Of a stretch of DNA of 64,000 bases, positions 11,506-64,000 are shown in pieces. Within the stretch, counting starts at the first letter, position 1. Each line of letters begins with the position of its first letter. The stretch lies in NCBI GenBank assembly GCA_001784175.1, contig MFPR01000004.1, forward strand, positions 1-64,000, written 5' to 3'. This DNA comes from Candidatus Lindowbacteria bacterium RIFCSPLOWO2_12_FULL_62_27 (GTDB taxonomy: Bacteria > Lindowbacteria > 2-12-FULL-62-27). The notes beneath the pieces are model-generated. The model saw only the letters and a list, made by a program, of their open reading frames with translations. It had not been told where the DNA came from and did not search any database. A program made the translations under genes and the position numbers.

Positions 11506-11507
11506 TC

Positions 11508-12095: not shown

Positions 12096-12382
12096 CCGAG
12101 TCCGGCGCGGCGCGCCCCCGGTATTTCACGATCTGGGTGTGGCTGGTGGTATTGACGCTCGCGTATCTCGCGGAGCGGCTGATCGGCGTGCCTCACCGGA
12201 TCGCGCTGGGCCTGGTGTTCGGAATTGCGCTCGTGAAGGCGCTCTTGGTGGCATGGAACTACATGCATCTTCGGCACGAAAGCCGGATGATTTTCGTCAT
12301 TCTTCTCATTCCGATTCTTCTCTTCGCGATTCTGGTCACGCTCTTGCTCCCGGACATCGCATTCGTCGGAGTCGGGAAATGA
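12092..12382 (+). CDS. Oxidase subunit IV family protein
   Basis: 3 TM; KALLVAWNYMHLRHE motif; ATGA coupling. Confidence 0.85.
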   Translation: MTESGAARPRYFTIWVWLVVLTLAYLAERLIGVPHRIALGLVFGIALVKALLVAWNYMHLRHESRMIFVILLIPILLFAILVTLLLPDIAFVGVGK

Positions 12383-13175: not shown

Positions 13176-15500
13176 ATGAGTGTTTACGGAGACCGCCGCG
13201 ATTTTCTTAAAAGAATGGCCTGGTATTCGTCCGCCGGCGCCGCGATATCCCTGATGCCGGGGGTGTCAATGGAGGCGTGGAGCGACTTCGAAGGCGACGC
13301 GGCCGAAATTGTGTGGAAGAAATCGCCGTGCCGATTCTGCGGCACCGGCTGTGGCCTTCTGATCGGCCTTGCGAGGGACCGCGCCGTCGCCGTGAAAGGC
13401 GATCCGAACTCGCCCGTCAACAAGGGGCTCTGCTGCGTCAAGGGCTACCACTCCGTCCAGATGCTGTACGGGAAGGACCGCCTGACGAAGGCCTTGGTGC
13501 GAAAGAACGGCGAGCTCGTCGAAACGCCGATTCAAGACGCGCTCGATCTTGTGGCCGCCAAAATGAAGGAGACCATCGGCGCGCGCGGCAAGGACGCCGT
13601 CGCGATTTACGGGTCCGGCCAGTGGACCATTCCCGACGGATACGTCGCGACCAAATTTTTCAAGGCGGGACTGGGGACGAACAACATTGAAGCCAACGCG
13701 CGGCTCTGCATGGCCAGCGCCGTGACGGGATTTATGACCACGTTCGGGTTGGACGAGCCGATGGGCTGTTACGACGACATCGATCACGCCGACACCTTTA
13801 TCCTCTGGGGCAACAACATGCCGGAAATGCATCCGATTCTTTTTTCCCGTGCGCTCGAAACCCGCCGCCAGAAGGAGTCGGGACTCATCATCGACCTCGG
13901 CACCCGGACAACCCGGGCCAGCTACGGCGCCGACAAATCGATCCTCTTCAAGCCGCAGACGGACCTGGCGCTGGCCAACGCGATCTGCCGGGAACTCTTC
14001 CGCACGGGGCTGGTCAACCAGGATTTCGTGAAGAAGCACGTGACGTTCAAAAAAGGCAAGACCAACATCGGATACGGCCTCGAGGACAAATTCAAATTCG
14101 ACGACGAGGCCGTCGAGATCGGCGTGAGGGAGTATCAGGCCTTTCTCGAGGACTACACACCGGAAAACGTGGAAAAAATTTCCGGCGTCCCGGCGACGGA
14201 CATCCGGTACCTGGCGCAACTGTACGGCGACCCGAAACGAAAGGTTGTCTCGTTCTGGTGCATGGGAATGAACCAGCACACGCGCGGCACATGGATCAAC
14301 AACCTCGTCTACAACCTGCACCTTCTGACCGGAAAAATCTCCACGCCCGGCAACAGCCCCTTTTCCCTCACCGGCCAGCCCAGCGCCTGCGGCACGTCAC
14401 GCGAGGTCGGCACGTTCACGCACCGGCTGCCGCACGGCGTCGTGACCAACGAGCACGATCGCGAGATGGCCGCCAAAATCTGGAAAGTGCCGGTCGAAAA
14501 AATCCCGGCGAAGCCCACCTACCACACCGTCGAGATGTTCCGGGCGCTGGACCGCGGGGACATCCAGTTTCTCTGGATACAGGCGACCAACCCGTTTCTC
14601 ACGATGCCGAAACTGCGGCGGTACCGGGACGGCGCCAAAAAGGAGGGCCGGTTCATCGTCGTGTCGGACGTCTATCCCACGCCGACCACCGACATCGCCG
14701 ACGTGATTTTGCCGTCCGCGCTCTGGATCGAGCGCGAAGGCATGTTCGGCAACGCGGAGCGCCGCACGCAGCATTTCGAGAAGATGGTCGACCCGCCCGG
14801 CGACGCGATGCCGGACGGCTGGCAGCTCATCGAGGTCGCGCGGAGGCTCGGGTACGGAGAGCTTCTGCCTTATTCGAAGAAGACCTGGGTTCAGGAGGTC
14901 TGGGAGGAGTACCGGCAGTTTCAACACGGCCCCGCGCATGAGATGGCGTCCTACGAGGACCTCCGCCGCCAGCCGGGCGTGATGTGGCCGCACGTGAACG
15001 GCAAGTCCACCAAGTGGCGGTACAACACGGCATACGATCCGGCGGCGAAGGGAGAGGGTGAATTTGATTTTTACGGGAACAAGGACCACCGCGCGGTCGT
15101 CTGGCAGCGTCCGTATGAGCCGCCGCCCGAATCGCCGGATGGGGAGTTTCCGTTCTGGCTCTGCACCGGGCGCGTGCTCGAACACTGGCACAGCGGGTCA
15201 CTCACCCGGCGGATCCCCACGCTGCACCGGGCCGTGCCGGAGGCGTATGTCGAGATCCATCCCGCCGACGCGGACCGGCTCGGCATCCGCAACAAGGACC
15301 CGGTCCGGCTGACGACCCGCCGAGGGACCCTGACGCTGCCGGCCAGCATCAATGGCCGGGCCGTGCCGCCGGCCGGCATGGTGTTCGTGCCGTTTTTTGA
15401 CGAGCGCTACCTGATCAACGAGCTGACGCTCGACGCATTCTGCCCGATCTCGAGACAGCCCGACTACAAGAAGTGCTCCGTGAAAGTGGAGCGCGCATGA
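13176..15500 (+). CDS. napA: Periplasmic nitrate reductase catalytic subunit
   Basis: Tat RRDFLK; CRFCGTGC...C; NARLCMASAV; MGMNQH; LTGQPSACGT; DYKKC.V terminus. Confidence 0.92.
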   Translation: MSVYGDRRDFLKRMAWYSSAGAAISLMPGVSMEAWSDFEGDAAEIVWKKSPCRFCGTGCGLLIGLARDRAVAVKGDPNSPVNKGLCCVKGYHSVQMLYGKDRLTKALVRKNGELVETPIQDALDLVAAKMKETIGARGKDAVAIYGSGQWTIPDGYVATKFFKAGLGTNNIEANARLCMASAVTGFMTTFGLDEPMGCYDDIDHADTFILWGNNMPEMHPILFSRALETRRQKESGLIIDLGTRTTRASYGADKSILFKPQTDLALANAICRELFRTGLVNQDFVKKHVTFKKGKTNIGYGLEDKFKFDDEAVEIGVREYQAFLEDYTPENVEKISGVPATDIRYLAQLYGDPKRKVVSFWCMGMNQHTRGTWINNLVYNLHLLTGKISTPGNSPFSLTGQPSACGTSREVGTFTHRLPHGVVTNEHDREMAAKIWKVPVEKIPAKPTYHTVEMFRALDRGDIQFLWIQATNPFLTMPKLRRYRDGAKKEGRFIVVSDVYPTPTTDIADVILPSALWIEREGMFGNAERRTQHFEKMVDPPGDAMPDGWQLIEVARRLGYGELLPYSKKTWVQEVWEEYRQFQHGPAHEMASYEDLRRQPGVMWPHVNGKSTKWRYNTAYDPAAKGEGEFDFYGNKDHRAVVWQRPYEPPPESPDGEFPFWLCTGRVLEHWHSGSLTRRIPTLHRAVPEAYVEIHPADADRLGIRNKDPVRLTTRRGTLTLPASINGRAVPPAGMVFVPFFDERYLINELTLDAFCPISRQPDYKKCSVKVERA

Positions 15501-16174
15501 TCTGGGAATCGGACCGGCGGATTTTTTTCGTCGGCCTGGGAATCGCCGCGATGGCCGTGCTGGTCATGTTCGTGGGTCCGGAACTTTTCGATTACCGGCC
15601 GGTCGCGTCGCGCGCCGACCCCCGCAGCGTCGACCTTCCGACCTCGAAACGCGATGTGGCGGCGGAGGCGGAGCCGATGCGGAAGCCGGCGTACGTCGTC
15701 CCGGCGCGCGCCGACGCGGACACGCGGACGTGGACCAAGTACGAAAGCCGCCGGGCCTTTCCCGGCGCGCCGCCGGCCATTCCCCATCCGGTGTCTGACG
15801 GGCCGGCATGGGAAAGCGGGAAAGTCTGCACCGCATGCCACGCCAGGGGCGGATATGTCCCGAAATACAACGCGTACGCCCCTGTGACGCCGCATCCGAA
15901 TTTCTCCTCTTGCCGCCAGTGCCACGTGCCGCGCCTGACAGACAAGTTATTTCGCGAAACCGCCTGGGCCACCGTCGCGCGTCCGAAAACCGGCCTCCGG
16001 GCCATGCCCGGCGCGCCGCCGGCGATCCCGCATTCCCTGCAGATGCGCGAAAACTGTCTCGCCTGCCATTCGGGTCCCAGCTCGGTGCCGGCCATCCGGT
16101 CGAGCCACCCGGACCGCGGCAACTGCCGGCAGTGTCATGTGCCGCGAGTCACCGATGAGCCGTTTGAACGGTGA
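15497..16174 (+). CDS. Tetraheme NapB-like cytochrome (two tandem diheme units)
   Basis: Two GAPPAIPH...CxxCH...CRQCHVP repeats; N-terminal TM. Confidence 0.85.
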   Translation: MIWESDRRIFFVGLGIAAMAVLVMFVGPELFDYRPVASRADPRSVDLPTSKRDVAAEAEPMRKPAYVVPARADADTRTWTKYESRRAFPGAPPAIPHPVSDGPAWESGKVCTACHARGGYVPKYNAYAPVTPHPNFSSCRQCHVPRLTDKLFRETAWATVARPKTGLRAMPGAPPAIPHSLQMRENCLACHSGPSSVPAIRSSHPDRGNCRQCHVPRVTDEPFER

Positions 16175-16743
16175 AACATATGACGATACAGTTCTTTGCC
16201 ATTCTCCTCCTCGCTTGCATCGGCTGCGGCAGCGAGCATCACATGTCATTGATGGAAAAAATCGAGCGCGCGGCGCCGGCGGCAGCCGCACCGGCGACGG
16301 ACTCGGGCGTGCGCCTGTTTTCGGTCCTGAGCCGCCAGGACAAGCTGGCCCACTTTCCCTGCCGAGGCTGTCATACCGACGGATTCAACCTGTCCGCCGC
16401 GGCCAAGCGCCCGCAGGAGAGGCGATCGCACTGGGACGTGGAGCTTCGGCACGCGCCGGCCGACGTCATGACCTGCGCGACCTGTCATGACTACCGCGAT
16501 TTAAATCATTTGAATAAAAACAACGGCGAGGCCGTGTCCTTCGACGAGCCCTCCGCGGTCTGCCGGTCATGCCATTTCCAGCAGTTCAAGGACTGGTCCG
16601 GCGGCGCGCACGGGAAGCAATTCAAATCCTGGACTCCGCCGCGCGTCCGCTACAACTGCACCACCTGCCACAATCCGCATCGCCCGGCGTTCCAGAAACG
16701 CTGGCCGGTGACGTATCCGAGCGTGCCGAGGAGGTATCCATGA
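16171..16743 (+). CDS. Tetraheme cytochrome c lipoprotein
   Basis: Lipobox-like IGC; CRGCH, CATCH, CRSCH, CTTCH. Confidence 0.85.
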   Translation: MKHMTIQFFAILLLACIGCGSEHHMSLMEKIERAAPAAAAPATDSGVRLFSVLSRQDKLAHFPCRGCHTDGFNLSAAAKRPQERRSHWDVELRHAPADVMTCATCHDYRDLNHLNKNNGEAVSFDEPSAVCRSCHFQQFKDWSGGAHGKQFKSWTPPRVRYNCTTCHNPHRPAFQKRWPVTYPSVPRRYP

Positions 16744-17750
16744 GCGGCGGGGCGAAGGCATGGTTTCAATCGTGGCTGCGGAAATGGAACGGCCCGGCGG
16801 GCGGTTGCGGTGCAGGTCTCTTGTCGAAATCCATCGGCCGGCGCGACGCGCTGAAAATGCTCGGCGGCGGCGCGGCGGCGAGCGGGGCGGTCGTGAACGC
16901 GTTCGCGCCGGTGAATCTCCTCTCCGGCTCATCCGAAGAGCGGGAAAAGGCCGTGATCGACTGGAAGGAATTTTTCAAAACCAACTACCGTTTGATGAAC
17001 GACCGGGAGCGCGCGGACACCATCGAGCGACTCGAACGCAAATACAAACTCGAACGCAACCTCGACGTGAAGATCAGCACCGCAGGGCCGCTGCCGAACG
17101 TCCTGTACGGATACGCCTTCAACCTGTCCAAGTGCAAAGGCTACCGCGAATGCATCCGGGCCTGCATTCAGGAGAACAACCAGGACCGCGCCAGCAACAT
17201 GCAATACATCCGGATTTTCGAAAAGCCCATGGGGTCGATGAGCGTGGAAAGCGGCGACGCCCGGTATTATCACGAGGTGCCGGCCGAGGGCCACTTCTAC
17301 ATGGGAACCCAGTGTTTCCAGTGCGACAATCCGCCCTGCGTGCGGGTCTGCCCGACGGGCGCGACGTGGAAGGAACAGGACGGGATCGTCGTGATCGACT
17401 ACGACTGGTGCATCGGCTGCCGGTACTGCCAGGCCGCCTGTCCCTACTGGGCGCGGCGGTTCAACTGGAAGGAGCCGACGGTCCCCAACGAGGAGGTCAA
17501 TCCGAACCAGCACTATCTCGGGAATCGCCTGCGAAAAAAAGGCGTGATGGAAAAATGCACGTACTGCATCCAGCGCACGCGCCAGGGACGCCTGCCGGCC
17601 TGCGCCGAGGCCTGTCCCACCGGCGCGCGCACGTTCGGCAATCTCCTCGACCCCGGCAGCGAGATCCGGTACATCCTCGCGCACAAGAAGGTCTTCCGGC
17701 TGAAGGAAGACCTGAATACCGAACCGAAGTTCTGGTACTACATGGACTGA
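16740..17750 (+). CDS. NrfC/TtrB-like 4Fe-4S dicluster protein
   Basis: Tat RRDALK; CFQCDNPPC..VCP, CIGCRYC..ACP, KCTYC...PAC..ACP. Confidence 0.9.
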   Translation: MSGGAKAWFQSWLRKWNGPAGGCGAGLLSKSIGRRDALKMLGGGAAASGAVVNAFAPVNLLSGSSEEREKAVIDWKEFFKTNYRLMNDRERADTIERLERKYKLERNLDVKISTAGPLPNVLYGYAFNLSKCKGYRECIRACIQENNQDRASNMQYIRIFEKPMGSMSVESGDARYYHEVPAEGHFYMGTQCFQCDNPPCVRVCPTGATWKEQDGIVVIDYDWCIGCRYCQAACPYWARRFNWKEPTVPNEEVNPNQHYLGNRLRKKGVMEKCTYCIQRTRQGRLPACAEACPTGARTFGNLLDPGSEIRYILAHKKVFRLKEDLNTEPKFWYYMD

Positions 17751-18970
17751 TGCCAATGACTCTCATCTATTTCCTCCGGGACGCCTTGCGTGAAGCCACG
17801 AGCGGCGGGCGCAAATATCATCTCTGGATGGGCGCGCTCACGCTCGTCATGCTGACCGGCGCCTACGCCTACTCGATCCAGTTCCGCGAAGGGCTTGGCG
17901 TGACCGGCATGACCGACCACGTGAGCTGGGGTCTCTACATTTCGAACTTCACCTTTCTCGTCGGCGTCGCAGCGGCGGCCGTCATGCTCGTGATGCCGGC
18001 CTACATCCTGCACGACGTCGATTTCAAGCGCGCGGTGATGCTGGGCGAGGGCGTGGCGGTGTCGGCGGTCGTCATGTGCCTCTGTTTCGTGATGGCGGAC
18101 ATGGGCGGGCCGCACCGGGGATGGCATCTCATCCCGGTGATCGGCTATTTCAACTGGCCGCAGTCGATGCTGACGTGGGACGTGATCGTGCTGAACGGAT
18201 ACCTCGCGCTGAATCTGCTCATTCCATTTTACATCCTGTTTTCGCATTATCGAAACCGCGATCCCAATCCAACGCTCTACGTGCCGTTCGTGATCCTGTC
18301 GGTTTTCTGGGCGGTCAGCATTCATCTCGTGACCGCCTTCCTGTACGCGGGGCTCGTCGCCCGGCCGTTCTGGAACAGCGCCCTGATGGGGCCGCGGTTT
18401 CTCGCGTCCGCCTTCGCCGCGGGCCCGGCGCTCATCCTGCTGGCGCTCGCCGTCATCCGCTCGCAGACGTCCTTCGCGATCGAGGACACGACGATCCGGA
18501 AACTCAGCCTGGTCATCACGGTGGCCGCGCAGATCAATCTGATCATGCTGGGCTGCGAGGTCTTCAAGGAATTCTACTGGCCATCGGAACATAGCGCGAG
18601 CGCCGTCTACCTCTTTTTCGGCCACCACGGCCATCATGCGCTGAATCCATGGATATGGACGTCCATCGCGATGAATGTCGTCGCCACGGGGATCATGACC
18701 GTTCACTCGGCGCGGCGATGCCATCACCTCCTGTATCCCGCCTGCGTCCTGCTGTTCACGGCGATCTGGATCGAAAAGGGCATGGGACTCATCGTGCCGG
18801 GATTCATCCCCTCCCCGCTCGGCGAGCTGGTCGAATACATGCCGACATGGATCGAGGTCGCGGTGACGCTGGGCATCTGGGCGACCGGGCTCTTCGTCTT
18901 CACCGTGCTGGTCCGGGTCGCCCTGCCGATTGAACTTGGGCGCCTCCGGGCGCCGGGGACGAATCGATGA
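17750..18970 (+). CDS. NrfD/PsrC family membrane anchor
   Basis: TGMTD.VSWGLYI.NF.F.VG; DMG.P.R; P.S...WD; about 10 TM. Confidence 0.9.
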   Translation: MPMTLIYFLRDALREATSGGRKYHLWMGALTLVMLTGAYAYSIQFREGLGVTGMTDHVSWGLYISNFTFLVGVAAAAVMLVMPAYILHDVDFKRAVMLGEGVAVSAVVMCLCFVMADMGGPHRGWHLIPVIGYFNWPQSMLTWDVIVLNGYLALNLLIPFYILFSHYRNRDPNPTLYVPFVILSVFWAVSIHLVTAFLYAGLVARPFWNSALMGPRFLASAFAAGPALILLALAVIRSQTSFAIEDTTIRKLSLVITVAAQINLIMLGCEVFKEFYWPSEHSASAVYLFFGHHGHHALNPWIWTSIAMNVVATGIMTVHSARRCHHLLYPACVLLFTAIWIEKGMGLIVPGFIPSPLGELVEYMPTWIEVAVTLGIWATGLFVFTVLVRVALPIELGRLRAPGTNR

Positions 18971-20361
18971 CAGGCGCGCAACCCGTCGTGCGGTCCGGCA
19001 GTCCGTGGCCTTTCTGGACAGGGCTTGCGTTGCAGCTCATCCTTGCGTGGGCGGCGGTTTTCGGCGCCTACGAGCTGATCGAACGATATTATCTTCAGGA
19101 TACCGGCCCCGCGCTCTTGCATCGGCTGCACATTCTGCGCGGGAGCGGCACGTCATTTTTGCTGGCGCTTCTGGCCGCGCGCGCCATGTACCGGCGGCGG
19201 GAGGAGCTGATCGTCGAGGCGAAGAACCGGCTGGCGGCGGAAAAATCGCGGCAGGACGAGATTCTGGCGGGACTCGGCGCCGGCCTCATCGTGCTCGACG
19301 CGTCGTTCAAGGTGACGTACGCGAACGCCCAGGCGCAAAAATGGCTGGGGACGAAACTCGCGAATTGCCTCTGCATCGTCGAGGATTGCCCGATGGGCCG
19401 GGACACCGGCGTGTGCCCGGCGCGGGTTTCGGCGCTTCAAAAAGGATGGGTGTCGTTTGAGGAAAAAATTGAAACGCCCGACGGGACGCGATACCTGTAC
19501 ATCACGGCGTCGCCCATCGGAGGCGGCAACGGCCGGCCGCCGGACGCCATCATCGAACTCGTTCAGGACATCAGCCCCATCAAGGCCATGGAGGCGAAAC
19601 TCCGGCAGACGATCATGGCCGCGCGCGTCGGCGCCATCGCCGCCGGCGTCGCACACCAGCTCGGCAATCCCCTCGCCTCGCTCACCGCGGCGGTCGAACG
19701 GCTTCTCAGCCTGGGCGCCGACAAGCAGGACGCGTACGCGCGATACCTGCGGCGCATCGAGGTCGAGGCCGAGCGGGCCGTCCACATCGTGCGGTCCCTG
19801 ATGGACCTGGCGCGCCGCGTCAAGGACCAGGAGTCGCGCCCGGAAGACTGCACGCATCAGGCCGACCTTCACGCAACCGTCACCGAGGCGGTCGAGATCG
19901 TTTCGGAAACATACAGCGAGATTCGTTCCTTTCTCAAACTCCATCTGCCCGACCATCCCCTGCCGGTCCGGGCCAACCCGACGGACGTCCGGGAGGTGCT
20001 GGTGAACCTGCTGGAAAACGCCGTCGAAGCCATGGTGGGTCGCGACGCGCAGCGGCTGGCCATCCATGCCGCCGAGGACCGCGGATCGGTGCTTCTGCAG
20101 GTGTGCGACAGCGGGCCGGGCATCGAAGAGGCGGCTCGCGACAAGATTTTCGAACCATTTTTCTCGACGCGCCGGGAGGGCACCGGCCTGGGCCTTTATC
20201 TGTGCCGGCAGATCGTCGAATCCTACGGTGGAGAGATCCGCGCGGACAACCTGCCGGCCGGCGGTGCGCGGATTCTGGTCCGGTGGCCGGCCGGTCGGCC
20301 GGCCGGTCGATCGCCGGTCGCCGGTGGCGCGCACACCGGCGCGCAGGCGGATCATCCATGA
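18967..20361 (+). CDS. PAS-containing sensor histidine kinase
   Basis: 2 TM, PAS, AHQLGNPL, NLLENA, DSGPG, GTGLGL. Confidence 0.92.
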   Translation: MTGAQPVVRSGSPWPFWTGLALQLILAWAAVFGAYELIERYYLQDTGPALLHRLHILRGSGTSFLLALLAARAMYRRREELIVEAKNRLAAEKSRQDEILAGLGAGLIVLDASFKVTYANAQAQKWLGTKLANCLCIVEDCPMGRDTGVCPARVSALQKGWVSFEEKIETPDGTRYLYITASPIGGGNGRPPDAIIELVQDISPIKAMEAKLRQTIMAARVGAIAAGVAHQLGNPLASLTAAVERLLSLGADKQDAYARYLRRIEVEAERAVHIVRSLMDLARRVKDQESRPEDCTHQADLHATVTEAVEIVSETYSEIRSFLKLHLPDHPLPVRANPTDVREVLVNLLENAVEAMVGRDAQRLAIHAAEDRGSVLLQVCDSGPGIEEAARDKIFEPFFSTRREGTGLGLYLCRQIVESYGGEIRADNLPAGGARILVRWPAGRPAGRSPVAGGAHTGAQADHP

Positions 20362-21758
20362 CCTCGCCCGCGCAGGCGTCGCAATCGGCGCCGTCGGCGC
20401 CTCATCCGCACCCGCGGCCGCTCCGGATCCTTCTGGTGGACGACGAGGCGGGCTTTCGGGAAATGGCGGCGGAACATCTCGAATCGGCCGGCTTCGAGGT
20501 CGAGCAGGCGGGCGGCGGGAGAGAGGCGCTGGAGATTCTGAAGGTGCGGACGTTCGATCTGGCGGTATTTGACCTCAAGATGCCCGACATGAGCGGGCTG
20601 GACCTTCTGACCAGGGTAAAATCCGACTTGCCCGAAATCGAAGTCCTCATTCTGACGGCGCACGGCGGCGTCGACACCGCGGTTGAGGCGATCCGGCGCG
20701 GCGCGCACCATTACCTTGTCAAACCGATCAAGCTCGCGGAACTGCAGGCTGCGCTGGAACGCGCGGCCGAGAAAACCGCGCTGAACCGCCGGCAGGCCGG
20801 GGAAACGGCGGTCCGCGCGCACCGTCAAAGCTACAGGGCCGGCGAATTTCTAGCGACGGGTCCGCGCACGCGGGAGCTTTTGGAAACTACGGCGCACGCC
20901 GCGGCGGGCGCCTTTCCGGTCCTGATCGAGGGCGAGACCGGCACGGGCAAGGAGCTTCTGGCGCAGTTCGTCCATCGGCGATCCCCGCGACATCAGGGCC
21001 CGATGGTGGCAGTCAACTGTGGGCTTCTGTCCGAAAGTCTCCTCGAGCGGGAGCTGTTCGGTCACAGCAGGGGCGCGTTCACAGGCGCCAGCGACAGCCG
21101 CGCGGGTCTGTTTGAGGCGGCCGACGGCGGCACCCTCTTTCTGGACGAGATCGGAGAGGCCAGCCCCAACGTGCAGGTGGCGCTGCTTCGCGCCATCGAA
21201 ACCGGCATGTTCCGGCGGATCGGGGAAGTTCGGGAGAGGTTTGCGGATGTGCGCATCGTCGCGGCCTCCAATCAGCCGCTGGCGAAATCCGCCGAAACCG
21301 GCAGGTTCCGCACCGATCTCTATCATCGCCTGAACGTCGTGAACCTTCGCATCCCGCCGCTGCGCGAGCGGCCGGAGGAGATCGTGCCGCTGGCCGAGAC
21401 GTTTTTGTCCCGGCTGTGGCCCGAATCCCGGTTTCTGGACGACGCCCGGGCGGCGCTCCAGTCCCATCCATGGCCCGGGAACGTCCGGGAATTGCAGAAC
21501 GCCATCGAACGCACCGTCTATTTATGCCGCGCAGGATCGGCCGGAAAAATGACGGGAACCGTGACGGCGCAGATGCTGGGCCTGACCGCCGCCGTGCCGC
21601 CGCCGGGTCCGGCCATGGATCTCGACGGGGCTGAACGCGCCCACATCCAGGCCACGATCCTGCATTTCAACGGCGACAAGCGCGCCGCCGCGGGCGCGTT
21701 GGGCATCACGCTCCGGCATCTGTACCGCAAACTCAAGAAACACGATTTGAGCGTCTGA
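20358..21758 (+). CDS. sigma54-dependent response regulator (NtrC family)
   Basis: REC domain; [23 protein letters not shown]-terminal HTH. Confidence 0.94.
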
Positions 21759-22251: not shown

Positions 22252-22941
22252 ATGGCCGAGCTGACGAAGTTCTGGTACCTGAAACGGATCAATCTCTTTT
22301 CCGAGCTGACGCGCGAGGATATGCAGATGATGGCCGACATGACCACCATGTCCTCCTTTCCCGCCAAAGAGGTCCTCTATTTTCCGGGCGACCCCTCCGA
22401 TTCGGTCTTTCTGCTTAAAGAGGGCAACGTCAAAATTTCTCAGCTCACGCCGGACGGAAAAAAGCTGACGCTCGACATCCTCAATCCCGGGGAACTTTTC
22501 GGCGAGGCCGCGATCACGGGGCCGGACGCGGAACGGGACACGATGGCGGAGGCGCTCACGCCGGTGCATGTGTGCGTCGCGTCGAAAGACCGGTTCATGC
22601 AGTTTCTGGATCGCCGGCCGGCCCTCGTGATGCGGATCACCAAGCTCATGGGATTTCGATTGAAGAGAATCGAGACCCGTCTGCAGTCGCTCCTGTTCAA
22701 ATCCGTGCCGGCGCGCCTCGCGGAACTGATCCTCCGGCTGGCCGACGATTACGGCAAAGAGACGCCGAACGGCGTCGAGATCAGCCTGAAACTGACGCAT
22801 CAGGAATTGGCCGAGCTGATCGGATCCACCCGCGAAACCACCAGCGCCATCATGGGCCGGTTCCGGGACAAAAAACTGATCGACACCGACGGCCGCCGGA
22901 TTAGCGTTCTCAACCGGCAAAAGTTGTCCGCTATCGTCTGA
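22252..22941 (+). CDS. Crp/Fnr family transcriptional regulator
   Basis: cNMP domain (G.VKI, PGELFGE); LTHQELAELIGSTRET HTH. Confidence 0.93.
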   Translation: MAELTKFWYLKRINLFSELTREDMQMMADMTTMSSFPAKEVLYFPGDPSDSVFLLKEGNVKISQLTPDGKKLTLDILNPGELFGEAAITGPDAERDTMAEALTPVHVCVASKDRFMQFLDRRPALVMRITKLMGFRLKRIETRLQSLLFKSVPARLAELILRLADDYGKETPNGVEISLKLTHQELAELIGSTRETTSAIMGRFRDKKLIDTDGRRISVLNRQKLSAIV

Positions 22942-56012: not shown

Positions 56013-56801
56013 ATGAACAATCATCGATATGCCGGATGGATACTTGGAATGCTCATCCTGACCGCCGGCGTGCCGACAGCATTCGCCGTGGAAAATCTCC
56101 ATTCCCCGTGGACAGGTCTTCTTCAAAAATACGTTTCTCAAAACGGGCTTGTCGCTTATTCGTCATGGAAGAAGAACGATACAGACGTTCGGAAACTCGA
56201 ACGCTATCTGCAGGCAATGTCGCCCGTGAATGCGGATTCCTTGTCCCGGCCGCAGGCGCTTGCGTATTACCTGAACCTTTACAACGCCTCGATGGTCAAG
56301 CTGGTGCTGGATCATCATCCGATCCCGAGCGTGAAAAAGATCGGAGGCTTTGGCGGGCCGTGGAAGGTTCAATTTATCGAAACGCCGAAAGGTCTGATCT
56401 CCCTGAATGACATTGAACACGGCATCCTTCGGAAAAAATTCAAGGAGCCGCGCATTCATTTCGCGCTGGTCTGCGCTTCGACCAGTTGTCCGTCGCTTCG
56501 ACTGGAGGCCTACGAGGGCCATCGAATCGACACGCAATTGGCGGACCAGGAGAAAACTTTTCTGATGGACACCGCCAAAAATCGATGGCGGATTGCCGCG
56601 TCCGGACTTCTGTCCAAAGAGGACCGGCTCGAGTTGGAGCTTTCCTCCATATTCAAATGGTTCGGCGAGGATTTCGGAGGCGAAGCAGGCGTGGTTCGGC
56701 GCGTCAGGCCCTTTCTGGATCCAGCCGGGCGCGCGCTCCTGGATCAATCCCGATATGACGTTGATTATCTTGACTACGATTGGTCACTAAACGAAAAGTG
56801 A
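56013..56801 (+). CDS. DUF547-like protein
   Basis: NLYNA, SLNDIEH, EPRIHFALVCASTSCP, SSIFKWF, YDWSLN. Confidence 0.88.
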   Translation: MNNHRYAGWILGMLILTAGVPTAFAVENLHSPWTGLLQKYVSQNGLVAYSSWKKNDTDVRKLERYLQAMSPVNADSLSRPQALAYYLNLYNASMVKLVLDHHPIPSVKKIGGFGGPWKVQFIETPKGLISLNDIEHGILRKKFKEPRIHFALVCASTSCPSLRLEAYEGHRIDTQLADQEKTFLMDTAKNRWRIAASGLLSKEDRLELELSSIFKWFGEDFGGEAGVVRRVRPFLDPAGRALLDQSRYDVDYLDYDWSLNEK

Positions 56802-56809
56802 GGCAGGCC

Positions 56810-59314
56810 ATGAACGAAGAAACAGTCCTTCACGCAATGCCATACATCAAGGAAATCGTTGATGACACCGTATTTCTTCTCGCGCCGTCCGTTCCAAACT
56901 GGATTGCCACAGATGAGCGCGGCGCGAAGATTCTCTCATTCGTGGATGGTCGCCGCACGGCTGGCCGGATCACGGATCGTTATTGCCGTGATATGAGCAT
57001 CGACCGAACGCGCGGGTGGCTCCATGTCCACACATTTCTCAAGGACGCGCTTCGCCATCAATTTGTCTCCCCGAATCCCGTCACGCCGCAGGTCTACAAA
57101 GGCCGCGCCGCATATCTCGAACCCACGGCGCTTCGGGAACTCTGGATTCACACGAACAATTCCTGCAACCTGGCCTGCACGCACTGTCTTGTTCGCTCCG
57201 GCCCGAACGGTGACGCGGGGCCTGAAACGCGGAAGATTCTGAAATGGATTGACGAGGGTCTCGCGCTCGGTGTCGAGCGATTTTATTTCACCGGCGGCGA
57301 GCCGATGGCGCGGAAGGATTTCTGGGAACTGGTCGAATATGTGACCTCGCTGGCCGAGATGGCAGTGCTGACCAACGGAACGCTTATTTCAGGCGAGCGG
57401 CTGGAGCGCCTCCGCCAGTGCGATCCGAACCTTTTGAAACTCCAGATCAGCCTCGACGGTTCGACCCCGGAAACCAATGATCCGATCCGAGGCCCCGGAA
57501 GTTTTCGCCGCGCGGTGGAGGGAATCCGAAATGCGGTCTCCGCCGGATTTTACCCAACGCTGACAACGGTTGTGACGCGCCAAAACGTGGATGATCTGTC
57601 CGGCATCGTACGGCTTGCGGCTGACCTGCGCCTCACAGCCGTTCATTTCATGTGGATGCATCTCAAAGGCCGGGCGGCCGAAAATAATCAGATGGCGGCC
57701 GGCATTCTGGAAATGATTGAAGCGGTGGAAAAAGCCCGCCGGACCGCCGCTGAACTTGGCGTCTATGTGGACAACATCGAAGCCGCAAAGACACGGATGG
57801 GCGGGCCCGCCGGGCTTAAAATGGATCTTTCCAACGCCGCCTGGGAAAGCCTCTGCATCTACTCGGACGGAGGAGTCTATCCGTCCGCCGCTACTGTTCA
57901 GGTGGCCGAGCTTCGGCTGGGCGACGCCAATCGCGCATCACTGAAAGAGATTTGGTTGACATCGCCCGTCGCGCGAAAAATGCGCGAGGCGAGCGTCGAG
58001 CAAATGGATCAATGCAGGGGATGCCGTTACAAATTCCTCTGCGGGGGCGGTGACATTGAGCACAGGTATTTTTTTGGACGAAACGGACACGCGGATAGCC
58101 GCCGGAACGGTACCGCCTTCATTGGCGACGATCCCTACTGCGGTCTCTACCAGAGTCTCATCGGAACGGCGATGCGCGAAATGGCCCGGCGCGGCGATCA
58201 ACGGAACGGTCCCAAGACCGGCTTTGACGCCCCGACCGTCTTTGCCGGAATGGGCGATGTTCGGACGCATGATTTTGGACTCCGGAACGGCCACGCCGCC
58301 GAGCCTGCGGATAAAATACGAGTTGCGGTCAAACATTCCAACTGCGTGCTGGCCTTCGATCTCGACACGTATCGCCGACCCGTTCGGGAATTTTACGGCG
58401 AAGCCGCCGAAAAACCGCAGGCCGATCTTTGCTGTCCGATCAAATACAACTCCGAATTTCTCGACCACATCCCGAAAGAGGCCATTGAAGTTTTCTACGG
58501 TTGCGGCGGTCCCATGCAGGAGGCGGACATCCGCGAAGGCCAGACAGTGGTCGATCTCGGATCGGGCGGCGGCATCGACTGTTTCATCGCCGCCAAACGC
58601 GTTGGACCGGCCGGGCGGGTGATCGGCGTCGACATGACGGACAAGATGCTGAATCTGGCCGGGCAGAATCGCGTCAAAGTCGCCGCGAATCTCGGCTATG
58701 ACAACGTCGAATTTCGAAAAGGATTTCTTGAATCGGTTCCCGTCGATGACAAATCCGCCGATCTGGTCACCTCGAACTGCGTCGTCAATCTGTCGCCGGA
58801 CAAGCGCAAGGTTTTCCGCGAAATCTGGCGGATCCTCAAGGATACGGGAACGGTTCTCATTTCCGATATCGTGACCGAGCGGGAATTGCCCCTGCACCTC
58901 GCCGTGAACAACCGGCTGGTGGGCGAATGCATCGGCCAGGCTCTGACCGAGGAGCAATTTCTCGCCTATCTCGAGCAGGCCGGATTCTACGGCATCACCG
59001 TCACCAAGAAGTTTTTCTGGAAGGATGTGGAAGGTCATCCCGTCTATTCCATCACCGTGCGCGGGCAAAAATTCGAAAAAACGAAAGGGTGCGTCTTTAT
59101 CGGTCAGCAAGCGATTTATCACGGCCCGTTCAAGTCCGTGACGGACGAGGAAGGGCACCTTTTTCCAAGAAACGAGCCTGTCGAAATCTGCACCGACACC
59201 GCCGCCAAACTCTCCGCGCCGCCTTACAACGCCTTTTTCACGGTTACGTCGCCGGACGGCAAGGTCGAGAGCGCGTGTTGTCTGGCCGGAACCGACGGCA
59301 AATCCTGTTGCTGA
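56810..59314 (+). CDS. Radical SAM/SPASM domain fused to ArsM-like methyltransferase
   Basis: CNLACTHC, TGGEP; CRGC.....CGGG...C; then LCCP, FYGCGGP, DLGSGGG, SNCVVNL, GECI; C-terminal CC...CC. Confidence 0.85.
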   Translation: MNEETVLHAMPYIKEIVDDTVFLLAPSVPNWIATDERGAKILSFVDGRRTAGRITDRYCRDMSIDRTRGWLHVHTFLKDALRHQFVSPNPVTPQVYKGRAAYLEPTALRELWIHTNNSCNLACTHCLVRSGPNGDAGPETRKILKWIDEGLALGVERFYFTGGEPMARKDFWELVEYVTSLAEMAVLTNGTLISGERLERLRQCDPNLLKLQISLDGSTPETNDPIRGPGSFRRAVEGIRNAVSAGFYPTLTTVVTRQNVDDLSGIVRLAADLRLTAVHFMWMHLKGRAAENNQMAAGILEMIEAVEKARRTAAELGVYVDNIEAAKTRMGGPAGLKMDLSNAAWESLCIYSDGGVYPSAATVQVAELRLGDANRASLKEIWLTSPVARKMREASVEQMDQCRGCRYKFLCGGGDIEHRYFFGRNGHADSRRNGTAFIGDDPYCGLYQSLIGTAMREMARRGDQRNGPKTGFDAPTVFAGMGDVRTHDFGLRNGHAAEPADKIRVAVKHSNCVLAFDLDTYRRPVREFYGEAAEKPQADLCCPIKYNSEFLDHIPKEAIEVFYGCGGPMQEADIREGQTVVDLGSGGGIDCFIAAKRVGPAGRVIGVDMTDKMLNLAGQNRVKVAANLGYDNVEFRKGFLESVPVDDKSADLVTSNCVVNLSPDKRKVFREIWRILKDTGTVLISDIVTERELPLHLAVNNRLVGECIGQALTEEQFLAYLEQAGFYGITVTKKFFWKDVEGHPVYSITVRGQKFEKTKGCVFIGQQAIYHGPFKSVTDEEGHLFPRNEPVEICTDTAAKLSAPPYNAFFTVTSPDGKVESACCLAGTDGKSCC

Positions 59315-61009: not shown

Positions 61010-61025
61010 TGGACCGCTGTTTGCA
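61010..61025 (+). promoter_or_regulatory. Possible sigma54 promoter of the nxr-like cluster
   Basis: tGGaccgctgttTGCa. Confidence 0.4.
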
Positions 61026-61038: not shown

Positions 61039-62580
61039 ATGAATCGGAACGTGACTCTGGCTTGCGTTTTGACGATTTTCGTCTCCGCCTGCGGGCAGGC
61101 GCCCTCTCGCGATACTGGGCAGAAAGTTTACTCCGCCTCCTGCGCGCCGTGTCACGGCGCATCCGGCAAAGGCGACGGTGAGCTTGCGGCGTTTTTGTAT
61201 CCCCGGCCGCGCGATTTTACGCGGGGCACATACAAGATCCGGTCGGTCATGGACGCAACGCCGGCCGACGCGGACCTTCGGCGCGTGATCGAGCACGGCA
61301 TGTCGGGGTCTGCGATGCCGGCGTGGAAGGGGCGGCTTTCCGATCAGGAAATATCGTCCGTCCTTTCCTATATTAAGACGCTTGCGCCGGACGCCTTTTC
61401 AACGCCGCCGACCCAGCCGGTCAGGGTGGGCACGCCTCCGGACCCTACGCCCGAACGGCTCTCCTCCGGCAAACTCGTCTACCAAAAAATGCAGTGCGCC
61501 AAATGCCACGGCGAGCGCGGCGTGGGGGACGGGCCGTCGGCTGCGGCCCTCAAGGACGATCTGGGGATGCCCATCCCGCCGGCCGATTTCACGCTCGGGA
61601 TTTTCAAGGGCGGCGACGATCCGCGCGATATCTACACGCGATTTACGACCGGCATGCTCGGCACGCCCATGCCGAGTTTCGGAGACTTGCTGACCGACGA
61701 CGACCGCTGGAACCTCACGCTCTACGTGAAATCGCTTGCGACGGAATCGATCCTCGACGACGAACCGCAGACCATCGTGGCGGCGATGACCTCCAAAATC
61801 ACCGACAACCCCTACGACCCGGTCTGGACCAAACTTCCACCCGTGCGCGTCGCGCTCCGGCCGCTCTGGCAGCGGGCGCGGTACGCAAGGCTCGCGGAAG
61901 TGCGTGCGGCGCACGACGGCAAAACGCTTGCGGTTCATCTCGTCTGGTATGATCCGAGCGAGGACGCGAGCAACGTCGAAGTCGACCGGTTCACGGACGC
62001 GGCGGCCGTGCAGTTTCCGCTGTCGACCACGCCGGGATTTTTCGGCATGGGCGCCGTCCTGTCGCCGTCCAATATATGGCATTGGAAGGCGGACATTCAG
62101 GCGGACATCGATCTCCGAAAGGCGGACCACCGGCGCCGGGACGTCGAAACCGCCTATCCCAACATGGCGGCCGACGCGTATCCGTTTTTGGGCAAGGATT
62201 GGAGCGGCGCCGCGCATGACGACCGGCGGCGGCCCGCAAAAGATTATGACGACCCCGCGTTCCTCACGGCCTGGGCGGCCGACAATCCCCTCGCCGATCC
62301 CGAACGGAAAAGTCCCTGCACCGAATACAACGCCGAAGGACCCGGCAGCCTGACGGTCCAGCCGCATGGCCATCAGAGCATCAACGGCGCCGGCGTCTGG
62401 CGCGGCGGCGTCTGGACGCTCGTGCTCCTGCACGAGCTGCACTCCGGCGACGAGATGGACGCGATGTTCACGATGGGCGACGAGCGGCCGGTGGCGTTCG
62501 CGATCTGGGACGGCGCCGCCGGCGACCGCGACGGCCAGAAGGTCGTGTCGCAGTGGCACAAGATGGTGCTGCGGCCGTGA
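61039..62580 (+). CDS. Diheme cytochrome c fused to an EbdC/NxrC-like (DMSO reductase gamma) heme domain, lipoprotein
   Basis: VSAC lipobox; CAPCH, CAKCH; DAAAVQFP...MG, WHWKAD, AFAIWDG...RDGQK. Confidence 0.82.
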   Translation: MNRNVTLACVLTIFVSACGQAPSRDTGQKVYSASCAPCHGASGKGDGELAAFLYPRPRDFTRGTYKIRSVMDATPADADLRRVIEHGMSGSAMPAWKGRLSDQEISSVLSYIKTLAPDAFSTPPTQPVRVGTPPDPTPERLSSGKLVYQKMQCAKCHGERGVGDGPSAAALKDDLGMPIPPADFTLGIFKGGDDPRDIYTRFTTGMLGTPMPSFGDLLTDDDRWNLTLYVKSLATESILDDEPQTIVAAMTSKITDNPYDPVWTKLPPVRVALRPLWQRARYARLAEVRAAHDGKTLAVHLVWYDPSEDASNVEVDRFTDAAAVQFPLSTTPGFFGMGAVLSPSNIWHWKADIQADIDLRKADHRRRDVETAYPNMAADAYPFLGKDWSGAAHDDRRRPAKDYDDPAFLTAWAADNPLADPERKSPCTEYNAEGPGSLTVQPHGHQSINGAGVWRGGVWTLVLLHELHSGDEMDAMFTMGDERPVAFAIWDGAAGDRDGQKVVSQWHKMVLRP

Positions 62581-63503
62581 AATCCGAAATCCGTAATCTG
62601 AAATCCGCACAGCCGTGTCCGTTGGTCACCTACGACCCGGCGCTGATCGAGGCCCTCGTCCGGTCGAAGGTCGATGCGGCGGCGGACGCGGATCAGAGCT
62701 GGATCAACGCCTACCGGGACGAGCTGGACGACATCTATGAGCGCAGCCCGGAAGAGCGCGAATCGCTCTTCGCCTCCCTGGATCGCCGCTATTTTCAGCG
62801 CGTCGGCATTCCGGCGATTGTGGAGGAGTGCCTTGCGGAGCGCGCCGGGGCGCTGCCCAAAACATGCAATGTGACCATGCTGTCGGCACAAGACCGGTCG
62901 GAAGAGGGCGCGGACGTAAACCGCGCCGGCCAGATGATCCTGCGCTTCCGGACCGCGACGCTGGCCGACTCGGAAAAATTTCGGCGGCGGCTGCGCAGGG
63001 AGATTGTCCAGGCGGCCGATTGTTTCAACCCGGAATTCGGCCATGCCCCGGAATTGCTGGACGCGCTGCTTCCATCCGAAAGAGAGCGCATCCGCGCGGC
63101 CCTGACCCTGCTCTGGGCGCTGACGGCGCAGATTCGGCTCTGCGCCGAGGAACCGTTGAAGACCGGCGCAACCGCGCAGGTTGAGAAAGAACGCCTGGAC
63201 CGGCTGGCCGCGGATCTGCGCGCCGCGCTGTGCGGCGACGCCCATGCGCCGCTGGCCGAACTTCTCCAGGACCTCCCGGCTCGGCCGCCGGCCTTCGGCC
63301 GGATGCTTGAGTTTTGCCGCCGGCACGCGGGCTCGGAGGCCGCGGCCTCCGGCATCTGCGATCTCTGCCGCTTTCCCTCCGAGGACGTTCAGACGTTGAG
63401 CGTCCTGCCGGACAACGTCCGCCGGGCGCTGACAGCGGAATTTACGTCACTCCAAAATATGTCACACGTCTGCGCACGCTGCGCCGAACGGTCCGCGATA
63501 TGA
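62577..63503 (+). CDS. Hypothetical protein with C-terminal CxxC...CxxC
   Basis: 4-nt overlaps with both neighbours; CDLCRFP and CARC; start uncertain. Confidence 0.65.
   Translation: MKSEIRNLKSAQPCPLVTYDPALIEALVRSKVDAAADADQSWINAYRDELDDIYERSPEERESLFASLDRRYFQRVGIPAIVEECLAERAGALPKTCNVTMLSAQDRSEEGADVNRAGQMILRFRTATLADSEKFRRRLRREIVQAADCFNPEFGHAPELLDALLPSERERIRAALTLLWALTAQIRLCAEEPLKTGATAQVEKERLDRLAADLRAALCGDAHAPLAELLQDLPARPPAFGRMLEFCRRHAGSEAAASGICDLCRFPSEDVQTLSVLPDNVRRALTAEFTSLQNMSHVCARCAERSAI
62579..62610. repeat. Heptamer tandem repeat (GAAATCC-like x4)
   Basis: gaaatcc gaaatcc gtaatct gaaatcc gcac. Confidence 0.7.
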
Positions 63504-64000
63504 CCTGGTCCGTATCCCGCCGCGCGTTCCTCCAGGCCGGCAGCCTCGCCGCGCTCCTCGCCGCCTGCGGCAAATCCAATCTCCGCCAGCTCAAAGGCAT
63601 CGTGGGCGTCGAGAACCCGCTCGAATATTATCCGGAACGCGGCTGGGAAAAAGTCTATCGGGACCAGTACCGGTACGACCGTTCCTTCACCTACGTGTGC
63701 TCTCCGAACGACACCCACGCCTGCCGCGTGCGGGCCTTTGTTCGAAACGGCGTGATCGTCCGCGTCGAGCAGAATTACGACATCCAGAATTACGCCGACC
63801 TCTACGGCAACAAGGCCACGCGCAACTGGAACCCGCGGATGTGCCCCAAGGGCATGACGTTCCCCCGCCGCGTCTACGGGCCCTACCGCCTCAAGCAACC
63901 GCTCATGCGGAAGGGCTGGAAGGCATGGGCGGACGACGGCTTTCCGTATCTGACGGCGGCGCTTCGGACCAAATACAAATTCGACAGCCGCGGCGCGGAC
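63500..64000 (+). CDS. nxrA: Periplasmic nitrite oxidoreductase/nitrate reductase alpha subunit, Nitrospira/anammox type (partial)
   Basis: Manual translation: SRRAFLQ Tat...NPLEYYPERGWEKVYRDQYRYD...CSPNDTHACR...VEQNYD...DLYGNKATRNWNPRMC...RRVYGPYRL...RKGW. Confidence 0.88.
   Translation, partial: MTWSVSRRAFLQAGSLAALLAACGKSNLRQLKGIVGVENPLEYYPERGWEKVYRDQYRYDRSFTYVCSPNDTHACRVRAFVRNGVIVRVEQNYDIQNYADLYGNKATRNWNPRMCPKGMTFPRRVYGPYRLKQPLMRKGWKAWADDGFPYLTAALRTKYKFDSRGAD

Follow-up and report, generated by a model that had tools for sequence, protein, structure and literature searches.

Positions 61039-64000 of the stretch of DNA analysed here (the window: 64,000 nucleotides, positions 1-64000 of contig C4, GenBank MFPR01000004.1, of Candidatus Lindowbacteria bacterium RIFCSPLOWO2_12_FULL_62_27) hold the beginning of what, judged from its sequence, is a complete and intact operon for a periplasmic nitrite oxidoreductase (NXR), that is, an NXR-type nitrite:nitrate oxidoreductase of the type II dimethyl sulfoxide (DMSO) reductase family. 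The enzyme itself is known, and published surveys, in the parts available to us, had flagged nxr-like genes in the Lindowbacteria phylum, generically only; what appears to be new is the predicted architecture, which would be doubly lipid-anchored and wired to cytochrome c. The authors who described the sister enzymes of Planctomycetota held that the direction of catalysis was not assignable from sequence (PMC10732223, as far as its text was available), and the direction in vivo cannot be read from sequence here either. Our best explanation of the whole, which we put forward tentatively, is a lipid-anchored, reversible NXR that serves mainly in nitrate respiration in a facultative heterotroph. 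Nitrite oxidation is possible, and is neither the sole nor clearly the best reading.

Structure of the operon and identity of NxrA

The source genome (G000), a metagenome-assembled genome of an uncultured bacterium from groundwater, comprises 4.39 Mb in 44 contigs, with a completeness of 94.2% and a contamination of 1.1%. Contig C4 coordinates beyond 64000 continue the window numbering, and L002 denotes C4:60001-80000. The operon consists of six tightly coupled genes in the order gamma-orfX-nxrA-nxrB-chaperone-small open reading frame (ORF), after which a gap of ~190 nt separates the small ORF from the gene of an NnrS-like protein. The genes and the NxrA motifs discussed below are:

61039..62580, + strand: gamma (nxrC-type with an N-terminal dihaem cytochrome c), 513 aa
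62577..63503, + strand: orfX, conserved NXR-cluster ORF, 308 aa, no family assigned
C4:63500-66961 (L002:3500-6961), + strand: nxrA, putative catalytic subunit with molybdenum bis-molybdopterin guanine dinucleotide (Mo-bisMGD), 1153 codons
63515-63532, + strand: Tat (twin-arginine translocation) motif SRRAFL of NxrA, residues 6-11
63557-63568, + strand: lipobox LAAC of NxrA, Cys23 being the predicted lipidation site
63698..63724, + strand: CSPNDTHAC of NxrA, residues 67-75, with the ligands C67, D71 and C75 of the iron-sulfur cluster FS0 and the substrate-contacting N70
63797..63844, + strand: DLYGNKATRNWNPRMC of NxrA, residues 100-115, ending in the fourth FS0 ligand, C115
C4 66954-68258: nxrB, 434 aa, with an 8-nt overlap with nxrA
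C4 68260-68955: NarJ/TorD-type chaperone, 231 aa
C4 68952-69227: small conserved ORF, 91 aa, with an ATGA overlap with the chaperone stop
C4 69414-71219 (L002 9414-11219): NnrS-like/DUF1858 membrane protein, 601 aa

The initial annotation of positions 61039-64000, made from the window's letters, had placed a cytochrome c/gamma fusion upstream of nxrA. The fusion gene is indeed present at 61039-62580, but it does not adjoin nxrA: the 308-codon orfX lies between the two, so that 61039-64000 covers three genes. The GTG start of orfX overlaps the gamma stop (GTGA) and its own stop overlaps the nxrA start (ATGA), and from these junctions orfX would be translationally coupled on both sides. With the nxrA ATG at 63500, the window contains 501 nt of the gene (63500-64000), which are the 167 codons that had been counted in it, and nxrB and the chaperone gene, both expected in the following stretch, were found there downstream of nxrA.

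The nxrA frame is uninterrupted over 1153 codons. When NxrA was compared with all PDB chains, the best match was NXR-A of Kuenenia stuttgartiensis (7b04_B), with 1880.3 bits over residues 5-1147 of the query and 3-1147 of the chain, followed at a distance by perchlorate reductase PcrA (4ydd_A, 214 bits), ethylbenzene dehydrogenase EbdA (153 bits) and E. coli NarG (105 bits). An open frame of this length together with a match of 1880 bits means that the ORF is not a product of chance. The two motifs on which the annotation had been based, CSPNDTHAC and DLYGNKATRNWNPRMC, occur exactly as quoted, at residues 67-75 and 100-115. In the Kuenenia enzyme Asp275 is a ligand of the molybdenum, Asn70 contacts the substrate, and C67, D71, C75 and C115 form an unusual FS0 [4Fe-4S] site of three cysteines and one aspartate (PMC8387239). 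All six of these residues are present in the query, where even the numbering coincides. Across an alignment of 61 sequences D275, N70, C75 and C115 never vary; position 67 shows 60 Cys and one gap, and position 71 shows 55 Asp and 6 Cys.

The remaining subunits are of the expected kind. NxrB matches Fer4_11 and has exactly 15 cysteines, and all 15 conserved Cys columns in an alignment of 53 sequences are Cys in the query; the chaperone matches PF02613 with 67.6 bits. The proteins of the operon that correspond to the curated NCBIfam models of type II DMSO reductases all score under the respective cut-offs: NxrA has 348.2 bits against 984.75 for TIGR03479 (the alpha subunit), NxrB 256 against 480.7 for TIGR03478, and gamma 117 against 169.85 for TIGR03477. 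These models are evidently built around the Ebd/Ser/Clr group, with the NXR clade outside them.

Relatives of NxrA

Relatives were collected from GTDB, with each species represented by one genome, and the best 80 of 97 loci were kept. Among these 80, the closest are a 'Candidatus Lindowbacteria bacterium' metagenome-assembled genome (MAG) and an unclassified groundwater MAG, both at 90% identity, followed by two Planctomycetota MAGs at 76-77% and an Omnitrophota MAG at 72%; relatives at 64-70% come from Brocadiaceae, Acidobacteriota, Binatia, Tectomicrobia/Nitrospinota, Chloroflexota, Myxococcota and others. The query is 69.8% identical to a Brocadia sequence, 67.9% to that of a Tectomicrobia MAG, 66.5% to that of a Nitrospinaceae-labelled MAG and 42.8% to its nearest paralogue. 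For comparison, Kuenenia NXR-A is ~60% identical to the Nitrospira/Nitrospina enzymes, ~40% to those of Nitrotoga/Hydrogenobaculum and ~20% to Nar/Ebd (PMC8387239). At 66-70% identity to anammox and Nitrospinota sequences, the query therefore lies well inside the periplasmic NXR clade. The wider family is large: of 8000 candidates that were scored, 2227 proteins had E <= 0.001, and for the best 120 homologues the identity to NxrA is 67-90%.

A FastTree phylogeny of 61 full-length sequences was rooted on the 42.8% paralogue; loci with fewer than ~1000 aligned residues and two duplicates were dropped, and the tree was built from the fetched loci, without named Nitrospira, Nitrotoga, Methanoperedens, Thermogutta or Nar references. 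It groups the query with two Lindowbacteria sequences at a support of 100, and this trio joins the Planctomycetota and Omnitrophota MAGs at a support of 90-94. The resulting Lindowbacteria/Planctomycetota/Omnitrophota group, the Brocadiaceae clade, and one large clade that contains Nitrospinota/Tectomicrobia and Acidobacteriota form a three-way split that the tree leaves unresolved. The annotation had taken NxrA for a periplasmic enzyme of the Nitrospira/anammox type, an assignment that the full-length match, the identities and the tree placement all bear out, the protein being neither disrupted nor outside that clade.

Within the phylum, nxrA was found at 90% identity in three of the four species genomes (G000, G002 and G003). 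Beside this gene, G003 carries a second NxrA paralogue (L086, contig C365 4973-8422) that is 43% identical, adjoins an NxrB-like gene and contains one in-frame TGA. DNA of the organism was found in 11 sequencing runs from 6 studies, all of them groundwater and soil metagenomes, and none of the runs is RNA.

Lipoprotein signals on NxrA and gamma

The Tat and lipobox calls were made by motif rules applied by script, the lipobox by a PROSITE-style rule of six non-charged residues followed by [LIVMFWSTAG]2-[LIVMFYSTAGCQ]-[AGS]-C. The N-terminus of NxrA, MTWSVSRRAFLQAGSLAALLAACGK, contains SRRAFL, a 12-residue uncharged stretch and then L-A-A-C; the Tat-lipoprotein signal itself reads SRRAFLQAGSLAALLAAC, with Cys23. 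The signal that the annotation had described as ending in LAAC is found at 63515-63568. Such a signal is rare. Only 3 of 121 NxrA proteins (the query and its 120 best homologues) pass the rule, namely the query, its Lindowbacteria orthologue P0005 and P0113, and among the fetched loci the canonical L-A-A-C-G occurs only in Lindowbacteria NxrA, where it is kept in G000, G002 and G003; by this sequence rule a canonical NxrA lipobox is a rarity. The NxrA proteins of Kuenenia and Brocadia have no cysteine at the lipobox position and show an Ala-x-Ala-type site instead. In the accessible portions of the literature we found no catalytic subunit, whether of NXR or of Nar, described as having a Tat-lipobox.

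The gamma subunit begins with a Sec-type lipoprotein signal, MNRNVTLACVLTIFVSAC followed directly by Gly, whose lipobox by the same rule is VSAC with Cys18; in L004, the single Lindowbacteria relative with a visible gamma N-terminus, the lipobox reads LVAC-G. In Acidobacteriota and Planctomycetota MAGs, many of the fused gamma proteins also have a lipobox-like signal at the N-terminus. The machinery that such signals call for is encoded in the source genome, with Lgt (PF01790) at 202 bits, signal peptidase II or LspA (PF01252) at 139 bits and TatC (PF00902) at 202 bits, and each of the three is present in all four genomes of the phylum. Both NxrA and gamma are thus predicted lipoproteins, and no transmembrane subunit was recognised among the genes of the operon. 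The membrane tether that the annotation had proposed is accordingly plausible from the lipobox rule, the conservation within the lineage and the presence of LspA, Lgt and TatC, and it keeps the standing of a prediction.

In about ten Acidobacteriota loci (L029-L033, L045, L053, L063, L074) NxrA carries a conserved cysteine in a non-canonical setting (for example GGLQAAC-TLLQP) that fails the lipobox rule, and the fused gamma subunits of those loci carry canonical-looking lipoboxes. The Acidobacteriota cysteine may represent a second, independent solution to lipid anchoring, or it may be something else.

The cytochrome c fusion of gamma

In Pfam, gamma matches Cytochrome_CBB3/Cytochrom_C in two stretches, each with a CxxCH, and then the EB_dh haem-b domain (PF09459) with 82 bits. 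In the NxrC of Kuenenia and in EbdC, haem b is ligated by Met and Lys (PMC8387239). M337 and K501 of gamma do not vary across the 54 gamma sequences aligned, Brocadia NxrC included, and this invariance fits them as candidate haem-b ligands. Gamma is therefore predicted to be a lipoprotein subunit with two c-haems and one b-haem. The fusion is widespread: by tblastn, a dihaem cytochrome c is in frame with the EB_dh-type gene in 34 of 55 loci, so that most of the sampled loci have a fused cytochrome c::NxrC, while in the Brocadiaceae-type loci gamma is short, unfused and ~330 aa long. According to the Nitrotoga preprint, neither the size nor the haem content of NxrC candidates is uniform (10.1101/317552); the dihaem-c::NxrC fusion as such was not found described in the literature as far as it was available.

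Respiratory and carbon metabolism of the genome

The source genome encodes two clusters of A-type (aa3) haem-copper oxidases, with COX1 matches of 454 and 435 bits and with COX2, COX3 and COX4 neighbours. One of them is in the same window as the nxr operon and the other is on contig C14. COX1 is found in all four genomes of the phylum, and the source genome has a terminal oxidase of a type able to take electrons from cytochrome c. Directly adjoining the first oxidase cluster is a set of genes for periplasmic nitrate reduction (Nap). These features of the window are:

9131-12966: aa3 oxidase cluster (COX2, COX1, COX4-like, COX3)
13176-15500: NapA (NF010055, 979 bits, cut-off 904)

In the Nap set as a whole (13176-18970), NapA is accompanied by a multihaem cytochrome, a NapB-like cytochrome and an NrfD-type membrane protein of 736 aa; it comes with a quinol-dehydrogenase module. 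Downstream of the set, a PAS histidine kinase with a sigma-54 activator takes up 18967-21758, and a regulator of the Crp/Fnr type takes up 22252-22941. NapA was found in one of the four phylum genomes, G000. NrfA is encoded on contig C10 of G000 (9606-10826, 458 bits), with one in-frame TGA in the matched stretch, and was found in two of the four (G000 and G002), so that G002 combines NXR and NrfA with no detected NapA. NirK, and NarG other than NxrA itself, had no match in G000, and Cytochrom_D1 gave a borderline hit only. The hydrazine synthase model HZS_alpha (PF18582) also had no match in G000, from which we conclude that the organism is not an anammox bacterium; among the controls this model was positive only in Bacteroides, which makes the control a weak one.

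There are four cytochrome b loci in G000, one at window positions 160-717 and one beside a bd-like protein on contig C6 (~249654-252063; L096 5655-8064). This protein, of 441 aa, follows the cytochrome b gene and combines an N-terminal half that is weakly CydA-like (43 bits) with a c-type cytochrome domain at its C-terminus; it resembles the kind discussed for Nitrospira. A link between the bd-like protein and nxr loci was considered and dropped, as tblastn gave only two weak matches, in L027 and L082.

As to carbon fixation, RuBisCO_large was over the cut-off in none of the four phylum genomes, and CdhC, the marker of carbon monoxide dehydrogenase/acetyl-CoA synthase (CODH/ACS), had no match in G000, with matches in the positive controls. 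PF16114 (Citrate_bind), the ATP-citrate lyase marker, was silent in G000, in the 4 phylum genomes, in 7 genomes with other NXRs (Nitrospinaceae- and Nitrospinota-labelled MAGs among them) and in all 14 controls alike. PF00285 gave only full-length citrate synthases of 393-511 aa and two partial matches.

Other genes of the operon and its surroundings

The orfX product matched no Pfam or NCBIfam family. By tblastn its homologues occur in 35 of the 80 nxr loci, including those of Brocadia and Nitrospinota; in Brocadiaceae and Nitrospinota/Tectomicrobia they precede nxrA, and in Acidobacteriota and others they follow the chaperone gene. The family has four invariant cysteines in a CxxC...CxxC arrangement (C261, C264, C299, C302) and a consensus LRHELxHxxDMLDPxFGY, which in the Lindowbacteria trio has become RRE(I/L)xQAADC with the loss of both histidines; at the LRHELxH stretch the query reads RREIVQ. 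An AlphaFold (AF2) model of orfX reached a mean predicted local distance difference test score (pLDDT) of 91.3 and a predicted template modelling score (pTM) of 0.80. Searched with this fold, Foldseek returned no PDB match at E <= 0.001, VIA-align gave a best Z of 6.2, under its noise level of 7-8, and Atlas gave only unnamed clusters and weak zincin-like rows with template modelling (TM) scores of 0.30-0.44. A zincin-like nature of orfX may be taken as a lead, which comes mainly from the HExxH-like consensus of the family.

The small 91-aa ORF likewise matched no Pfam or NCBIfam family, and tblastn located homologues in 16 of the 80 loci, usually between nxrA and nxrB. Two conserved hypothetical neighbours of 70 aa and 341 aa have been described at the nxr genes of Nitrotoga (10.1101/317552), and these may be the same pair as the small ORF and orfX. 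The NnrS-like protein beyond the operon matches PF05940 with 53.9 bits, a domain that is weakly COX1-like, and DUF1858 (PF08984) with 75.5 bits in two stretches; no homologue of it was present among the other fetched nxr loci. The NnrS-like and DUF1858 'hybrid-cluster-protein-associated redox disulfide' families are linked to nitrosative stress.

Scans of the operon for promoters and terminators were uninformative, with 2 promoters found against 2.0 expected from shuffled sequences and 17 terminator hits against 9.9 expected, none of them usable at gene borders. A sigma-54-like site at 61010-61025, TGGACCGCTGTTTGCA, has the GG/GC dinucleotides and spacing of that type and lies 14 nt 5' of the gamma start, which would leave almost no leader; it was rejected as a candidate, such matches occurring 8 times in the window where 9.98 are expected by chance. 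Upstream of the operon, at window positions 56780-59314, an 844-aa ORF resembles a radical-SAM/SPASM-type protein with a methyltransferase-like C-terminal half and ends in a cysteine-rich tail.

Discussion

Comparison with the systems described so far separates what the Lindowbacteria enzyme shares from what sets it apart. With NXR-ABC of Kuenenia (kustd1700/1703/1704; PDB 7B04) it has in common the full length of the alpha subunit, the molybdenum ligand, Asn70, the FS0 site, the cysteine set of NxrB and an EB_dh-type haem-b gamma subunit with the conserved Met and Lys positions, and in the Brocadia loci the orfX homologue likewise stands directly upstream of nxrA. In Kuenenia, however, the Tat signal of NxrA has no cysteine and the enzyme is soluble, forming tubules with NXR-T in the anammoxosome (PMC8387239), and the gamma subunit of these anammox bacteria (~330 aa in Brocadia) is unfused, unlike the dihaem-c fusion of Lindowbacteria. 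The periplasmic NXRs of the Nitrospina/Nitrospira type belong to the same clade, in which Nitrospinaceae-labelled and Tectomicrobia MAGs represent them in our tree, and share a Tat-exported NxrA, the Asp in FS0 and a NarJ/TorD-like chaperone; the Tectomicrobia locus also has both the dihaem-c::gamma fusion and orfX. Their membrane attachment has been ascribed, with some uncertainty, to a transmembrane segment or an uncleaved signal in NxrC candidates (10.1101/317552), whereas in Lindowbacteria lipoboxes are found on both NxrA and gamma. The Nitrospina/Nitrospira organisms are, moreover, autotrophs, while RuBisCO and CODH/ACS were not found in Lindowbacteria G000.

The nearest sequences outside the phylum are those of non-anammox Planctomycetota MAGs (L005, L056; PMC10732223), at 77% identity and as sisters with a support of 90-94. 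These and other groundwater MAGs resemble the source genome in that oxidases and Nap co-occur with NXR (PMC10732223, PMC9562985) and in the dihaem-c::gamma fusion; they differ in that their NxrA signals have no lipobox and in that the gamma gene is downstream, where in Lindowbacteria it is upstream. Lindowbacteria are not named in the accessible main text of either paper, supplementary trees aside. A different kind of parallel is provided by Thermogutta terrifontis, a facultative anaerobe that shares bc1 genes, an aa3 oxidase and NrfA with the kit of G000. It is a cultured polysaccharide degrader that reduces nitrate to ammonium with Nrf and with a deep-lineage Nar (THTE_1507-1509) encoded beside bc1 genes (PMC5673643), and its Nar falls in the same major clade as the NXRs of anammox bacteria and nitrite-oxidising bacteria (PMC10732223). 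The comparison is by published description only, and in that description the Thermogutta Nar differs in being annotated as a cytoplasmic NarGHI (PMC5673643). As for the anchor itself, haloarchaeal NirK and NosZ are Tat-exported lipoproteins (PMC8301774), in which a twin-arginine motif followed by a [LVI][ASTVI][GAS]C lipobox likewise stands on an extracytoplasmic redox enzyme of the nitrogen cycle; these are copper enzymes, archaeal, and served by another lipidation machinery.

The family to which the enzyme belongs raises the question of its substrate. EbdABC, SerABC, ClrABC and PcrABC exchange electrons with c-type cytochromes, and they too have three subunits, Tat export of the alpha-beta pair and a gamma subunit of the EB_dh family. 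Hence it could be argued that the substrate is chlorate, perchlorate, selenate or yet another compound and that assigning nitrite and nitrate over-reaches from the family level, all the more as the second-best PDB matches are perchlorate reductase (4ydd_A) and ethylbenzene dehydrogenase, and as the sub-clade of Lindowbacteria and Planctomycetota is known from sequence alone. We consider this very improbable. The similarity to those enzymes of other substrates is only local, at 150-215 bits, and with 1880 bits an undoubted NXR scores nine times as high as the best of them (214 bits); the Ebd/Ser-type NCBIfam models have cut-offs of which the query falls far short; and the residue that contacts the substrate is Asn70 in all 61 aligned sequences but Ile in ethylbenzene dehydrogenase (PMC8387239), the 3Cys/1Asp FS0 site being kept as well. 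Still harder to believe is that the operon was mis-binned or is a recent, possibly silent, horizontal acquisition. It is true that the NXR phylogeny crosses phyla, the nearest sequences outside Lindowbacteria being from Planctomycetota and Omnitrophota MAGs, and that the gene is missing in one of the four phylum genomes. Yet the gene lies 63.5 kb inside a contig of 507,730 bp, the GC content of the operon is 63.1% against 61.3% for the genome, the reading frames are all intact and coupled, and an nxrA of 90% identity occurs in two other Lindowbacteria species, where lipobox and gene order are also the same.

The preferred explanation, a lipid-anchored reversible NXR, can be laid out as a pathway. 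NxrAB would be assembled in the cytoplasm and exported by Tat, NxrA Cys23 and gamma Cys18 would be lipid-modified via Lgt and LspA, and the complex would hang on the membrane by two lipid anchors without a transmembrane subunit. Electrons would pass between the molybdenum (bisMGD), the clusters FS0-FS4, haem b, the two c-haems and the periplasmic cytochrome c pool. Because of the fused c-haems, the partners of the complex in electron exchange would be c-type cytochromes of the periplasm and not quinones, to which it would have no direct coupling; this exchange would connect it both to bc-type complexes and to aa3 oxidases. The reversibility of the enzyme and its role in the cell would be the least certain part; the Kuenenia NXR does catalyse both directions in vitro (PMC8387239). 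Its main job may then be energy-conserving nitrate respiration, with electrons running from quinol through the bc complex and cytochrome c to NXR and the nitrite formed going to NrfA, and a possible second mode would be aerobic nitrite oxidation to the aa3 oxidases. The route from quinol through bc complex and cytochrome c to NXR would conserve more energy than a Nap-type route.

We lean slightly towards nitrate respiration feeding NrfA as the main role, because the organism looks heterotrophic, Thermogutta terrifontis shares its kit, and G002 has NXR and NrfA without Nap. The initial annotation had thought of an unrecognised nitrite oxidiser, which we could not establish: the genome has the oxidases but also NapA with a quinol-dehydrogenase module and NrfA, and RuBisCO and CODH/ACS were not found. 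Nevertheless, an alternative in which the enzyme and its wiring are as above but serve mainly for oxidation, with periplasmic nitrite oxidation delivering electrons through the c-haems and cytochrome c to the aa3 oxidases, is nearly as likely, because the characterised close enzymes oxidise nitrite, G000 has its own Nap, and aa3 oxidases are lineage-wide; it would either supplement the energy supply of a heterotroph (lithoheterotrophy) or belong to an autotrophic life by nitrite oxidation that has gone unrecognised, and we regard it as a serious possibility. The query shares 66-70% identity with enzymes whose host organisms oxidise nitrite in vivo (PMC8387239), all the accessory genes of NXR clusters are present, one of the two A-type oxidases is 50 kb away in the same window, nitrate reduction in G000 has a separate NapA, and NXR is a conserved lineage trait (three of four genomes) where NapA is not (one of four). 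The authors who described the sister Planctomycetota MAGs (77%, L056) favoured nitrite oxidation on similar grounds (PMC10732223). What speaks against it is that neither RuBisCO nor CdhC was found in the genomes and with the cut-offs given above, that NrfA is encoded and the overall profile is unlike that of known nitrite oxidisers, and that the oxidases are low-affinity A-type enzymes only, apart from the divergent bd-like protein. A bolder form of this idea, in which Lindowbacteria would be a new phylum of heterotrophic or mixotrophic nitrite oxidisers whose NXR is double lipid-anchored and has a built-in dihaem cytochrome c feeding aa3 oxidases, we think unlikely.

Several points weigh against nitrate respiration by a lipid-anchored NXR and have to be set beside our leaning towards it. 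The characterised enzymes tied to the core group of at least 60% identity (anammox, Nitrospina, Nitrospira) all oxidise nitrite in vivo (PMC8387239), and it is to two of those groups that the query has its 66-70% identity. With a complete Nap system in the same window of G000, a second nitrate reductase would be unneeded. The two aa3-type oxidases and the high-potential haems fit nitrite oxidation equally well. The MAGs of the relatives are 81-91% complete, so that the missing Nap in them is weak evidence, and the reductive tricarboxylic acid cycle marker PF16114 was silent everywhere, with no positive control. Finally, lipidation and membrane location are predicted only, and both proteins have Gly at +2; by the sorting rule of E. 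coli, Gly at this position directs a lipoprotein to the outer membrane, a rule that need not apply in this organism.

No biological process other than nitrite oxidation is known to form nitrate. Membrane attachment and electron hand-over of periplasmic NXRs carry a question mark in the published schemes (10.1101/317552, PMC8387239). For one lineage, the locus described here offers a concrete answer, namely a catalytic subunit with a Tat signal and a predicted lipobox and a putative lipoprotein gamma subunit with two c-haems of its own. It also draws attention to orfX, a four-cysteine protein that accompanies nxr genes in groups ranging from anammox bacteria to Acidobacteriota. Since an nxrA that is 70% Kuenenia-like stands here in a genome with NapA and NrfA, counts of nxrA in groundwater may mislabel nitrate reducers as nitrite oxidisers. 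If, on the other hand, the organism does prove to be a nitrite oxidiser, the long-open problem of membrane attachment would have been solved by this lineage in its own way, by lipid anchors.

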